Assembly: GCA_934121905.1 (NCBI GenBank)
Contig: CAKOVI010000009.1
Location: 3,986-67,985 of the forward strand
Reading direction: 5' to 3'
DNA from: an uncultured Clostridia bacterium
GTDB lineage: Bacteria; Bacillota; Clostridia; TANB77; CAG-508
DNA length: 64,000 nucleotides
The translations under genes and the position numbers were made by a program. Below, in pieces: positions 19,789-28,359 of the stretch (position 1 is the first letter of the stretch; each line of letters starts with the position of its first letter). Under the pieces are notes generated by a model. It saw only the letters and a program-made list of their open reading frames with translations. It ran no database searches and was not told the origin of the DNA.

Positions 19789-20565
19789 TTAAATATTTCC
19801 CATAATATTATAACCATTATCTGAAAAAATAATTTGACCTGTAATAGAATCACTCATTTTACTTAATAGAAATGAAACCACATTACCAACTTGATAAGTA
19901 GTGACATTCTTATGTAGTGGTGCTTTTTCCTCAACTACCTTTAAAATACTTCCAAAATCCTTAATCCCTTTTGCAGATAAAGTCTTAATTGGACCAGCAG
20001 AAACTCCGTTTACCCTGATTCCATCTTTGCCTAAATTATTTGCCAAATATCTAATACTTGCCTCTAAAGCTGCTTTTGCGACCCCCATAACATTATATCC
20101 TTCTAGAACCTTAGTAGAACCATAATAAGTAAGTGCAACTAAGCTTGCATTTTCATTTATCATATCTAATTCTTTAGCAATCCTTGATGCTAAAACAAAC
20201 GAATAACTGCTTACTTCTACCGCATGAGTATATCCATCCTTACTTGTTTTAATGAAATCATTGTGTAAATCTTCTGTAAATGCATGTGCAATACAATGCA
20301 CAATTCCATCTATCTTTCCATTTTCTTCTTTTATTTTAGTAAATGTTTCCTTTACTAATTCATCACTAGATGCATCTTTCAAAACATATGCTTGGCTTCC
20401 CTCAAATTCAGATATAAGCGATTCTGTTTTTTCCTTATTTTCTTCATTTGTATATGTAAAAATAAGTTTTGCACCATTTTCATAAGCAGATTTTGCTATA
20501 CCATAGGCTATGCTCCATTTATTTCTTATACCCATTATTAATATTTTTTTATTTTCTAATAACAT
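19789..20565 (-). CDS. fabI: Enoyl-[acyl-carrier-protein] reductase (NADH) FabI. Real start is MLLENKKILIMG; the longer ORF call is an artefact of reading into the repeat.
   Basis: Rossmann N-terminus and YxxMxxxK-type active-site region (YNVMGVAKAALEA). AGGA SD before the ATG at 20565. Confidence 0.88.
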   Translation of the reverse strand: MLLENKKILIMGIRNKWSIAYGIAKSAYENGAKLIFTYTNEENKEKTESLISEFEGSQAYVLKDASSDELVKETFTKIKEENGKIDGIVHCIAHAFTEDLHNDFIKTSKDGYTHAVEVSSYSFVLASRIAKELDMINENASLVALTYYGSTKVLEGYNVMGVAKAALEASIRYLANNLGKDGIRVNGVSAGPIKTLSAKGIKDFGSILKVVEEKAPLHKNVTTYQVGNVVSFLLSKMSDSITGQIIFSDNGYNIMGNI

Positions 20566-20583
20566 ATTTCTCATCCTTTCGCC

Positions 20584-20678
20584 TTTCGTATTTGGGATGG
20601 TTCCTTTTGCAAAATGTCCTAAAAAGAACCGGTCCCAATGGGGCATTTTTCTTAAAAGGAACCGTCCCCAATACGAAA
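20584..20678. repeat. MITE-like palindromic repeat, copy 6. It overlaps the last 8 codons and stop of accA.
   Basis: TTTCGTATTTGGGATGGTTCCTTTTGC ... AAAAGGAACCGTCCCCAATACGAAA. The accA tail FRIGDGSF and its stop codon lie inside the right arm. Confidence 0.85.
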
Positions 20679-21452
20679 TTCTCCCATATTTCTAAATTTA
20701 CTATATCTATCTTGAACAATGCCTTCCTCAGACAACTTCTTCAACTCGTCAACCGTCTTTATAATTTCTCTCTTTAAAATTTGAACCAATTTTTCAAAAT
20801 CATCCTCTGGTTCCTCAATAATTTTATCAATAACTTTTAAATCATACAAGTCTTTAGCTGTAAGTTTCATTTTCTGGGCGGCCTCCTCGGCCCTTGATGC
20901 ATCTTTCCATAAAATACTCGCATATCCTTCTGGAGACAAAATCGAATAAATCGAATTCTCTAACATGAATACCTTATTTGCCACACCAATTGCTAAAGCT
21001 CCTCCGCTAGAGCCTTCTCCAACTACAATTGAAACAATAGGAACTTTTAAACCTGCCATCTTAAGCATAGAACTTGCAATAGCTTCTCCTTGCCCTCTTT
21101 CCTCTGCTCCAATTCCTGGGTATGCACCTTTTGTATCTATAAAAGTTATTACAGGTCTATTAAATTTTTCGGCTTGACTCATAAATCTGATAGCCTTTCT
21201 ATAACTTTCCGGATTTGGCATTCCAAAATTTCTTTCTATGTTTTCTTTCGTATTTCTGCCTTTTTGTTCTGCTATTATAGTATAATTTTGTGTTCCAATT
21301 CTTGCTAATCCACATACCATTGCTTTATCATCTCTGTAGTTTCTATCTCCATGAAGTTCTATAAATTCATCAAATATTTTTTCTATATAATCTAAAGACG
21401 TTTTTCTATTACTCGCCCTTGCTATCTGTACTTTTTGCCATGCTGTTTGCAT
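20652..21452 (-). CDS. accA: Acetyl-CoA carboxylase carboxyltransferase subunit alpha (short form, 266 aa; C-terminal 8 residues encoded by repeat copy 6)
   Basis: WQKVQIARASNRKTSLDYI ... GAYPGIGAEERGQGEAIA matches the AccA core. SD GAAAGGA. Confidence 0.88.
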   Translation of the reverse strand: MQTAWQKVQIARASNRKTSLDYIEKIFDEFIELHGDRNYRDDKAMVCGLARIGTQNYTIIAEQKGRNTKENIERNFGMPNPESYRKAIRFMSQAEKFNRPVITFIDTKGAYPGIGAEERGQGEAIASSMLKMAGLKVPIVSIVVGEGSSGGALAIGVANKVFMLENSIYSILSPEGYASILWKDASRAEEAAQKMKLTAKDLYDLKVIDKIIEEPEDDFEKLVQILKREIIKTVDELKKLSEEGIVQDRYSKFRNMGEFRIGDGSF

Positions 21453-21480
21453 TTTCTCACATCCTTTCTATTTCTCATTG

Positions 21481-26827: not shown

Positions 26828-26844
26828 AATTTTTTCCTCCTTTT

Positions 26845-26878
26845 CCATTTGGTGCCGTCCTTTTTTTGGGCAGGCAAA
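26845..26878. repeat. Partial (half) MITE-like repeat, copy 10 (CCATTTGGTGCCGTCCTTTTTTTGGGCAGG)
   Basis: Degenerate single arm of the family, between fabD and fabG. Confidence 0.55.
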
Positions 26879-27736
26879 CTACATTCTCTTAACAAATCCA
26901 CTTAAAGTCTTTCCTGGTCCAACCTCAATAAATTCTTCAACACCCAAATCTTTCATCATCTTTAGACTCTTAGAAAATCTAACCGGACTCACAATATGTC
27001 TAGCTAAAATATCTCTAATATCGTCATCGTCATTATAGATTTCTCCATCAATATTTCTAACGACCTTACTCTCAAACCTATGTATTTCAACCTTATCCAG
27101 TTCTTGTTTCAAATTTTCCGAACTTTTTTTTAATTTTTCAGTATGAAACGGTCCTGAGGTCTTTAATATTCTAACTTTTTTTATTCCTATCTCTTTAGCT
27201 AAATTTTGAAGTTCACTTATTCCTTCTTCATCACCTGTGACAACAATCTGACCAGGACAATTATAATTTGCAGGAACTGCAAAACCTCTTTGAACCTTTT
27301 TGCATAAAACTTCAACATCTTCATCAGAAGCTCCTAGGATTGCTGCCATTTGCCAATTGCCTTTTGGTGCTAAATCTTGCATAAATTCCCCCCTCTTTTG
27401 AACAAGTTTTACTCCATCTTCAAAAGAAAGTGCCTTACTATATATTAAAGCTGTATATTCTCCCAAACTTAAACCTGCTGATATATCTGCTTTAATTCCT
27501 TTTTTCTTCAAAATTTCAAGTTCTGCCAAACTATTTGTAAGAACTGCAAGTTGGGTATATTTAGTTTGATTTAAAATATCTTCTGGTCCTTCGAAGGAAA
27601 TTTTTGCTATATCAATTCCTGTTATATCTTTCACTCTATCATATATCTTTTTTGCATCTTTATCATTTTCATATAAATCTTTCCCCATTCCAATAAATTG
27701 TGAACCTTGGCCTGGAAATAAAAATCCTATTTTCAT
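26879..27736 (-). CDS. fabD: ACP S-malonyltransferase FabD (real start MKIGFLFPGQGSQ at 27736)
   Basis: GQGSQ and GLSLGEY active-site motifs. AAGGAGG SD. The upstream 31 codons of the ORF call are repeat-encoded. Confidence 0.9.
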   Translation of the reverse strand: MKIGFLFPGQGSQFIGMGKDLYENDKDAKKIYDRVKDITGIDIAKISFEGPEDILNQTKYTQLAVLTNSLAELEILKKKGIKADISAGLSLGEYTALIYSKALSFEDGVKLVQKRGEFMQDLAPKGNWQMAAILGASDEDVEVLCKKVQRGFAVPANYNCPGQIVVTGDEEGISELQNLAKEIGIKKVRILKTSGPFHTEKLKKSSENLKQELDKVEIHRFESKVVRNIDGEIYNDDDDIRDILARHIVSPVRFSKSLKMMKDLGVEEFIEVGPGKTLSGFVKRM

Positions 27737-28359
27737 TTCAAATATTCCTCCTTTTTTGTACCATTGGGACCGGGTCTTTTTGGTGCATTTTGCAAAATGC
27801 ACCAAAAAGACCCGGTCCCAATGGTACAAATCACCTTTCTATTATCAACCTCAATTCCAAACTCTCTCCTAACAGAAGTTGCAATATCCTTAATTTCATT
27901 TGCAAACTCAACTTGATTAGTATTAATGCCAATCCCAATAACAACACATCTAACCAGTCCATTCTGCACCTTAGACTCGGTAAGTATTCCTCCTAACTTC
28001 TTACCATTGCAATAAATATCATTAGGAAACTTTATATCCAAGTCAATATCATACATCTCTTTAAAAACCATAACAATCTTCTTCGCAATTCGAACAGTCA
28101 ACCCGTCTAGTTCATCAACCCTGCAATTTTTTTTGCTAAAATCAAAATAAACCGAAAAGGCAATATTATTTTCTTCATCTGTATGCCAAATTCTTCCGTG
28201 TGTTCCTATTCCTGCTGTTTGAATATCTGCTATAATCATAGTTTTATCCTTAATTGTTTTATTTTTGAATCTTCTCCAAATCTCTTTTTGAGTTGAATCT
28301 ATTGTTTTATAGTGAAATATCTTAAATCCATCCAAATTCCTTAAACTCTCCTTAGGCAT
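27733..28359 (-). CDS. birA: Biotin--[acetyl-CoA-carboxylase] ligase-like protein (group I, no HTH). The C-terminal roughly 30 aa are encoded by repeat copy 11.
   Basis: BPL catalytic motifs QTAGIGTHGRIWHT and KFPNDIYCNGKKLGGILTE. The ORF then reads ...VICTIGTGSFWCILQNAPKRPGPNGTKKEEYLK through the repeat. Its stop overlaps the fabD start (ATGA). Confidence 0.75.
   Translation of the reverse strand: MPKESLRNLDGFKIFHYKTIDSTQKEIWRRFKNKTIKDKTMIIADIQTAGIGTHGRIWHTDEENNIAFSVYFDFSKKNCRVDELDGLTVRIAKKIVMVFKEMYDIDLDIKFPNDIYCNGKKLGGILTESKVQNGLVRCVVIGIGINTNQVEFANEIKDIATSVRREFGIEVDNRKVICTIGTGSFWCILQNAPKRPGPNGTKKEEYLK
27758..27827. repeat. MITE-like palindromic repeat, copy 11 (perfect 70-bp palindrome). 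It carries the fabD RBS-proximal region and the 3' end of the birA-like gene.
   Basis: GTACCATTGGGACCGGGTCTTTTTGGTGCATTTTGCAAAATGCACCAAAAAGACCCGGTCCCAATGGTAC. Confidence 0.9.

Follow-up and report, generated by a model that had tools for sequence, protein, structure and literature searches.

Repeats in the spacers of a fatty-acid synthesis operon of an uncultured gut Clostridia bacterium are probably tolerated members of a REP-like mobile hairpin family

The stretch of DNA analyzed here (64,000 nt, hereafter the window) is part of contig CAKOVI010000009.1 (positions 3,986 to 67,985, forward strand; assembly GCA_934121905.1) from an uncultured Clostridia bacterium of the lineage TANB77/CAG-508, and its GC content is 29%. 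Its genes were annotated with Pfam on L001, a human-gut metagenome scaffold identical to the window. About 50 of the 56 genes lie on the minus strand, which is a very strong co-orientation, and they include a fatty-acid synthesis operon that runs from a fadD-like gene through birA, fabD, fabG, fabF, accB, fabZ, accC, accD and accA to fabI (Table 1). Terminator-like hairpins lie immediately beyond both operon ends (30160-30195 and 19690-19722), while within the operon a scan predicted no terminator on the sense strand, and no internal promoters were detectable above background between the cistrons. Copies of a short palindromic repeat stand at six of the ten junctions between these cistrons. 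We consider it likely that they belong to a family of small, non-autonomous mobile hairpins, similar to REP (repetitive extragenic palindromic) elements and BIMEs, which occupies the intergenic DNA of low-GC gut Clostridia and is tolerated there.

A first-pass annotation, made from the sequence alone, had listed six repeat-bearing sites in this operon and had described almost every spacer as occupied. Reading of the sense strand together with a scan for the repeat core located all six copies, one of them diverged, but no repeat is present at the fadD/birA, fabG/fabF, fabF/accB and accC/accD junctions, and the same family also occurs at 11 intergenic sites of the window outside the operon, so that the description was too broad. 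The copy between fabD and fabG, which had been called a half-copy, does exist, although it is rather a diverged single unit: it agrees with the core at about 14 of 19 positions in a hand alignment, is unique in the window under its own pattern, and is tandemly triplicated in the strain variants L005 and L006. The gap between the end of an array and the Shine-Dalgarno (SD) sequence of the next gene is 0-15 nt, in agreement with the earlier statement that several copies end within a few nucleotides of the next SD. Two arrays are not purely spacer DNA, because the birA open reading frame (ORF) and the 3' end of accA run into them.

Repeat DNA is accordingly translated at these two gene ends (27733-27835 and 20652-20680). 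The birA ORF continues through the whole inverted pair, adding 33 codons as a C-terminal extension, and ends at an ATGA that overlaps the fabD start, while in accA the stop codon falls within the first unit of the accA/fabI array. The birA frame stays open across its array in two strain types, those of the window and L002, but meets an early stop in L116 and runs on in L008; a coupling of the flanking genes through this frame, of the kind considered for MIRUs, was therefore rejected, as the constraint on the frame is not consistent across these four sequences.

The anatomy of the repeat was taken from a pool of 328 distinct units, drawn from the window, from two sister species and from some 110 gut contigs of low GC content. 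A unit measures about 33 nt and has a conserved centre, ATTGGGACCGGKTCTTTTT on its T-rich strand, around which a stem of 6-8 bp closes. The stem arms vary from copy to copy yet stay complementary (TGTACC/GGTGCA, GGGACC/GGTCCC, TGCCCA/TGGGCA). Mutual information between the arms is maximal exactly at the antiparallel register, paired cells make up 71.9% as against 53.7% in shuffles (150 units, with 0 of 500 shuffles as high), and the covariation score of 0.484, against 0.215 in shuffles, was reached by none of 500 shuffles, slid controls giving 0.13-0.23.

The units are assembled according to a strict grammar. Among adjacent pairs, 165 are tandem and 136 are inverted with the T-tails inward ("+-"), and just 2 have the opposite "-+" arrangement; the tandem arrays repeat about every 32 nt, and 16-18 nt separate their cores. 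Within an inverted pair, one half mirrors the other exactly, also in cases where the stem of the unit itself carries a mismatch, which means that the pair behaves as one entity. Transition-type mismatches in the arms are compatible with G·T pairing on the T-rich strand in 182 cases and on the other strand in 82 (p = 7e-10), and this bias is alike in units whose T-rich strand corresponds to the mRNA and in those whose A-rich strand does (51:30 versus 55:23, Fisher 0.40), so the folding strand is set by the element and not by transcription. Such an asymmetry fits the single-stranded DNA substrate of a Y1 transposase and points to selection at the level of DNA rather than RNA. The arrays simply sit between a stop codon (or terminator) and an A-rich SD region. 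A CRISPR-like or uptake-sequence reading was dropped, since the variable parts are complementary arms of 6-13 nt and the units avoid coding DNA, and so was a MITE (a miniature transposable element with inverted repeats) derived from an insertion sequence (IS), as there is no target duplication and no IS-type transposase among the recurrent neighbour proteins.

No transposase was present among the top 14 protein families that recur beside the repeats. A regular expression for HUH...Y, run over all fetched loci, retrieved one ORF of 255 aa (L126:6792-7559, minus strand), which matches Pfam Y1_Tnp with 49 bits and has as its best NCBIfam model the REP-associated tyrosine transposase (RAYT; 63 bits, with IS200 at 20 bits). 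More than 1000 homologues of 255-260 aa were found in metagenomes. Sequence and profile searches of the PDB with this protein gave no match and the fold search alone succeeded: for a structure model of the homologue P0001 (95% identical to the L126 protein; pLDDT 84.5), the best match was 4ER8_A (E 3.5e-7, TM 0.73), the RAYT of E. coli in complex with a REP hairpin, followed by the IS608, IS200 and ISDra2 transposases at about 1e-4. Residues 140-254 are all-helical in the model, and this protein family gave only weak matches to the helix-turn-helix (HTH) models HTH_19, HTH_26, HTH_28 and HTH_23 (E 0.007-0.17), in some of 30 homologues.

The link between this gene and the repeats lies in its surroundings. 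Four RAYT loci were found (L126, L214, L216/217 and L218), coding for proteins 64-95% identical, and in all of them the gene has T-rich units on its upstream side (1-3) and A-rich units on its downstream side (1-4); it is single-copy and fixed in the chromosome, it stands at the symmetry centre of an array, and the arrangement of its flanks is that of the array grammar. The unit subtype changes along with the protein variant across the four loci, and between the birA/fabD unit of the window and the one that lies upstream of the L126 gene, 1 of 32 positions differs. In three of the four loci the gene is syntenic, with met-gamma-lyase and glmS as neighbours, as expected for a vertically inherited single-copy RAYT, and tblastn found a second copy in no fetched locus and no copy in the window. 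In two species, L214 (8625-9873) and L216 (1374-2625), gene calling splits the neighbouring met-gamma-lyase into two pieces (309 + 58 or 50 aa), with repeat units nearby, and it may be another gene end remodelled by repeats.

In the whole 64-kb window, the pattern GGGACCGGTTCTTTT with at most two mismatches gave 29 core matches, where 0.02 were expected, and the window contains 17 sites in total, every one intergenic or at the 3' end of a gene. Since so many genes share the minus strand, most gaps are co-directional by default, which weakens arguments that rely on placement inside an operon. Junctions are occupied at 6 of 10 positions in the operon and at 10 of 44 in the rest of the window, a marginal difference (Fisher p = 0.049) from a post hoc test, the operon having been chosen because of its apparent richness in repeats. 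Placement was also analyzed in a contig set of 887 kb (loci L094-L213, L008, L009 and the window), in which 78% of the units are intergenic while intergenic DNA makes up 23% of the sequence. Occupancy in this set is 22% for co-directional, 25% for convergent and 25% for divergent junctions, and the orientation of the units relative to flanking genes is unbiased (124 versus 119).

Table 1. Genes of the fatty-acid synthesis operon and repeat sites in the window (window positions; + and - after a unit position give the orientation of the unit).
Feature	Position	Strand	Details
Fatty-acid synthesis operon	19789..30079	-	fadD-like to fabI
fadD-like	28352-30079	-	
birA	..28359	-	
fabD	26879-27736	-	
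fabG	26096-26826/26848	-	
fabF	24839-26080	-	
accB	24373-24825	-	
fabZ	23843-24265	-	
accC	22434-23774	-	
accD (split)	22069-22416 + 21579-22088	-	
accA	20652-21452	-	
fabI	19789-20565	-	
birA/fabD repeat, inverted pair	27755..27830		units 27766+ and 27805-; perfect 36-bp stem
fabD/fabG repeat, single diverged unit	26845..26876	-	A-rich orientation on the sense strand; directly abuts fabG SD
accB/fabZ repeat, three-unit array	24281..24366		units 24307+, 24326- and 24347-
fabZ/accC repeat, compact inverted pair	23786..23838		units 23796+ and 23815-
accD/accA repeat, inverted pair	21481..21577		units 21491+ and 21553-; perfect 37-bp stem, 23-nt loop
accA/fabI repeat, three-unit array	20584..20678		units 20594+, 20622- and 20654-
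Repeat outside operon, 3 units	1215..1320		
Repeat outside operon, 3 units	3942..4086		
Repeat outside operon, single unit	4588..4622	-	GGGGTCGGTTC variant
Repeat outside operon, inverted pair	12438..12540		
Repeat outside operon, inverted pair	15284..15368		
Repeat outside operon, compact inverted pair	34449..34501		89% identical to the fabZ/accC copy
Repeat outside operon, 3 units	35015..35107		
Repeat outside operon, 3 units	43307..43405		
Repeat outside operon, inverted pair	44699..44770		
Repeat outside operon, 2 units	53715..53767	-	convergent gap
Repeat outside operon, single unit	62380..62417	+	divergent gap

Some further observations concern the distribution of the core. About 22% of the core matches in the 887-kb set, even at 0-1 mismatch, lie more than 30 nt inside heuristic ORFs of at least 90 aa, and some of these ORFs run through arrays, such as a recurrent 110-aa "protein" of translated repeats. 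The exact 18-mer TTGGGACCGGGTCTTTTT also occurs in six contigs of the IMG/VR viral collection (L088-L093), among which only L091 (27% GC) has an inverted pair, the others having 37-38% GC and single matches. At the Rfam gathering score, the sole passing match in the window is a tRNA, and the further matches at E up to 1 are all sub-threshold ones to eukaryotic miRNA hairpin models, a generic similarity of long hairpins.

The arrays differ between closely related genomes. Between contigs 97-99% identical, an indel or a replacement is seen at roughly 10-20% of arrays. At birA/fabD, for instance, the inverted pair of the window has as its counterpart a single unrelated unit in L002-L004 and yet another one in L005, and L107 and L189 form one empty/filled site pair. 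In the 95%-identical contig L203, three different units take the place of the single unit at 62380-62417. In the sister species L008 (USOM01) and L009 (CAKPDO01), whose FabF is 90% identical, the family is present in the operon at partly different junctions, with accC/accD, empty in the window, being occupied, and at the shared junctions the subtypes and orientations of the units differ from those in the window. The core is absent from 27 further related species, in 7 of which the operon is fully compact with spacers of 1-20 nt; L018, L019, L021 and L033 are among the species with a compact operon. The first-pass annotation had proposed a comparison of orthologous operons, and its outcome, with repeat-free compact operons in these 7 species and partly different occupied junctions in L008 and L009, runs counter to the functional placement suggested there. 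The share of related species without any expanded junction is 7 of 30, and each non-overlapping junction of the operon is expanded in some related species. The ancestral spacer is essentially stop-SD-start, so any tolerated insertion must end beside an SD, which explains why the arrays end a few nucleotides from it.

Further sequences were noticed in the spacers of this operon in related species. Small antisense ORFs (111 aa and 86 aa) lie inside it in L008 (3920-4422 and 6629-7052) and L009 (9566-10000), at fabG/fabF and fabZ/accC, where the spacers of the window are only 15 nt and 68 nt; each has its own SD and a terminator-like hairpin, and none belongs to a Pfam family. Other palindromic families are present in the operon spacers of L011 (the palindrome GAAACAAAAGGGACAGGTCT...), of L014 and L016 (tandem, GTAG-tagged GTAGCATTGGGGACGGTTCGTAATCGGAAAC, with the ATTGGGGACGGTTC core in common) and of L030 (a 36-bp palindrome), while L035 and L014 have MITE-like elements of 180-300 nt with AT-rich terminal inverted repeats.

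Folding of the spacers as sense RNA, a check which the first-pass annotation had also proposed, predicted hairpins of -24 to -69 kcal/mol, except for the single fabD/fabG unit, whose fold is nothing special. The perfect 36-bp stem of birA/fabD gave -65.9 kcal/mol (z -12.3) and the perfect 37-bp stem of accD/accA gave -68.6 kcal/mol (z -11.9), and the values were -41 kcal/mol (z -4.5) for accB/fabZ, -39.8 kcal/mol for accA/fabI and -24 kcal/mol (z -4.9) for fabZ/accC, the z-scores of these three and of the paired-stem folds spanning -3.7 to -12. In every predicted fold the SD and the start codon are unpaired, and no U-tract follows an array on the sense strand, the arrays preceding A-rich SD regions. 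The proposal that the repeats are intercistronic RNA structures is thus borne out as far as very stable hairpins that spare the SD are predicted, but the mismatch asymmetry follows the strand of the element and not the transcript. In E. coli and Salmonella such hairpins can shield upstream RNA from 3' exonucleases. Long perfect duplexes are substrates of RNase III. REPs near a stop codon reportedly can stall terminating ribosomes (Liang et al. 2015 are said to have described this). From the folding models, side effects of the arrays on mRNA decay or processing are plausible.

Considering these results, we propose a model for the origin of the regular pattern. By analogy with E. coli TnpA-REP and the IS200/IS605 transposases, the RAYT would recognise the folded T-rich DNA strand, cut and rejoin it, and thereby seed and remodel arrays. 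Copies would persist only at harmless places, and in a compact operon the sole harmless place may be the handful of bases that separate a stop codon from the SD after it; survival only there would give placement that looks regular, with arrays ending beside the SD. The hairpins, which are not terminators and spare the SDs, may incidentally slow 3'-5' decay or attract RNase III. The first-pass annotation had suggested that the elements are "tolerated, or even used", and had considered simple insertion less likely. Its first half agrees with our results and no computed result supports use, whereas the doubt about insertion is contradicted by the mobile family, the equal occupancy of gap types, the turnover between strains and the repeat-free relatives.

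The most serious alternative is a recruitment of the arrays as RNA elements between the cistrons, whose output ratios they would set by acting as decay barriers, as RNase III sites or by modulating translational coupling. The very stable folds with single-stranded SDs and no sense U-tract would suit such a role, as would the two perfect stems of 36-37 bp, which are long enough for RNase III. The higher occupancy of operon junctions would also agree with it, as would the colonization of the same operon in L008 and L009 and the presence there of other palindromic families in L011, L014, L016, L030 and L035. There is precedent as well, since REPs, which influence the stability of mRNA, were first reported as intercistronic elements of the his and mal operons (Higgins 1982 and Stern 1988, cited in PMC3184786). 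However, the enrichment comes from a post hoc test and is marginal, units fill convergent and divergent gaps at an equal rate without orientation bias, and the asymmetry of stem mismatches tracks the element. The array content at one junction varies between 99%-identical strains and between sister species, the 7 compact species have the same operon with minimal spacers, and the occupied junctions are unpatterned with respect to enzyme stoichiometry. Recruitment is therefore unlikely in our view, and the evidence points to tolerance.

The units might instead be host sites at the DNA level, as proposed for E. coli BIMEs; they would then bind gyrase, IHF-like or other nucleoid proteins or a domesticated RAYT and be kept for chromosome organisation. 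Conservation is strong over the 17-19 nt centre, in which the near-palindrome GACCGGKTC is found, sites are dense and rather evenly spread at about one per 4 kb, and the RAYT is single-copy and syntenic like a housekeeping gene (PMC5581495). Presence, absence and replacement between strains and the lack of the family in close relatives nevertheless argue against an essential role, and the covarying variable stems argue for recognition of a folded single strand rather than a duplex, which makes this explanation very unlikely. Least credible, and highly improbable, is a subdivision of the operon by arrays acting as transcription terminators or attenuators: they are strong GC-containing hairpins in an AT-rich genome, and REPs can terminate transcription in E. 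coli (as cited in PMC6006769), but there is no sense U-tract, the scan calls none of the arrays on the minus strand, and the arrays lie between essential cistrons without detectable internal promoters above background.

Several points weigh against the view that the repeats are a tolerated, RAYT-mobilized family. The RAYT score of 63 bits is below the curated NCBIfam cut-off of 80 bits, and the 64-kb window contains no RAYT gene; the contigs that carry one come from related organisms which are not demonstrably the same species, and none of the contigs overlapping the window (75-95% identical) has it. The canonical REP tag is absent, since of the 328 units at most 1% have GTAG, CTAC, CGTC or GACG at a distance of up to 14 nt from the core, and neither a target-site duplication nor a defined target was found at the empty/filled and replaced sites. 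The contig set was ascertained by an exact 18-mer, its copies and contigs are not independent, and its genes come from an ORF-length heuristic. Transposition activity is itself inferred. Finally, the operon excess, together with unrelated palindromic families in the spacers of other species, leaves some room for a selective benefit. In a stronger form, intercistronic hairpins would be selected per se in this clade, with several palindromic families colonizing the same operon, and RAYT repeats would be the raw material for an evolvable mRNA "punctuation" that tunes cistron ratios. The families that have colonized the operon in many species are the present REP family, GGGAC-core relatives and the AT-rich 180-300 nt MITE-like elements. 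We regard this reading as rather improbable. A less radical part of it is that this would be the first dense REPIN-like population in Bacillota, with a long TIRYT-like RAYT, a unit of conserved centre and variable stem, and no GTAG.

One further observation in the operon concerns accD. This gene is in two parts, a 115-aa zinc-ribbon and a 169-aa carboxyltransferase, joined at about 22069-22090, and the cause of the split is a 1-nt insertion (GGTACTCGGAAAAATT versus GGAACAGGAAAAATA in relatives). The identical shift occurs in three species (the window, L008 at 8830 and L009 at 14115) and both halves are well conserved, which speaks less for a pseudogene or an error of assembly than for a programmed +1 frameshift or an AccD made of two polypeptides.

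The tolerated-family reading carries a caution for annotation, as intercistronic repeats that look regular can be the footprint of tolerance toward a mobile hairpin family instead of regulation by design. Records of dense REP populations together with their cognate RAYT come mainly from Proteobacteria, and for the long RAYT-like proteins of Clostridia, few repeats or none were reported (PMC5581495, PMC6006769). In the uncultured low-GC gut lineage studied here, units occur about once per 2 kb, the arrays follow a strict grammar, the design of the unit is unusual and turnover at the strain level is measurable. The system is tractable for asking what a Y1 transposase recognises, and the arrays can serve as strain-typing markers for organisms available only as metagenome-assembled genomes.

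No published description of this repeat family was found in the literature, and it was compared with several known systems. Correia elements of Neisseria and ERIC elements of Yersinia are palindromic repeats that are co-transcribed with genes and can alter mRNA decay. They are MITE-like elements of 100-150 bp with terminal inverted repeats and target duplications, features which were not seen in the repeats here. The mycobacterial interspersed repetitive units (MIRUs) reportedly retain small ORFs overlapping the genes on either side, whereas here the frame through an array is not consistently kept and the units are hairpins with a dedicated Y1 transposase. MIRUs of Mycobacterium tuberculosis are small repeats inside operons, between cistrons, with a strain-variable copy number (PMC3184786).

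Another known system is the TIRYT or "TIRtron" (Di Nocera 2013, PMC3733652), which has been equated with TnpA-Y1 subclass 2.1 (Quentin 2018, PMC6006769). TIRYTs are long RAYT-like proteins with a C-terminal HTH-like extension; the protein here is long, with a helical C-terminal half in the model and weak HTH matches. Their flanking inverted repeats share GGGGWSAS, are sometimes self-complementary, and occur in dimers or clusters (PMC3733652); the cores GGGGACGG and GGGACCGG match this motif at 7 of 8 positions. TIRYT families have been described as moderately abundant only, in contrast with about 0.5 units per kb here. Quentin et al. reported no REP-like sequences near subclass 2.1 genes (PMC6006769), and Bertels et al. 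found abundant flanking repeats in RAYT Groups 2 and 3 only, with few in Group 1, which occurs in Clostridia (PMC5581495), Group 1 being a classification from a different study than subclass 2.1.

The REPINs of Pseudomonas (Bertels and Rainey 2011, PMC3116915) are alike in that the inverted doublet is typical with halves that are perfect mirror images, singlets resemble remnants, and the RAYT is vertically inherited. They differ in that same-orientation tandem arrays with a 32-nt period are common here and the RAYT group is probably another one. The REP/BIME plus RAYT system of E. coli and Salmonella (TnpA-REP, "REPtron") likewise consists of short palindromic extragenic units in high copy number, in inverted and tandem arrays that vary between strains and often lie between the cistrons of operons, and its units flank a single-copy Y1/HUH transposase gene in inverted orientation; its RAYT structure 4ER8 is the best fold match of the transposase found here. 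The present family is without the 5' GTAG tag, conserves the centre and varies the stem where E. coli REP conserves the stem, and is hosted by a low-GC Clostridia lineage instead of Proteobacteria; its transposase, whose C-terminal half is helical, is 255 aa long, while 4ER8 chain A has 165 aa. With these variant features, the family works like the REP/BIME-REPIN plus RAYT systems, and its mechanism is not new.

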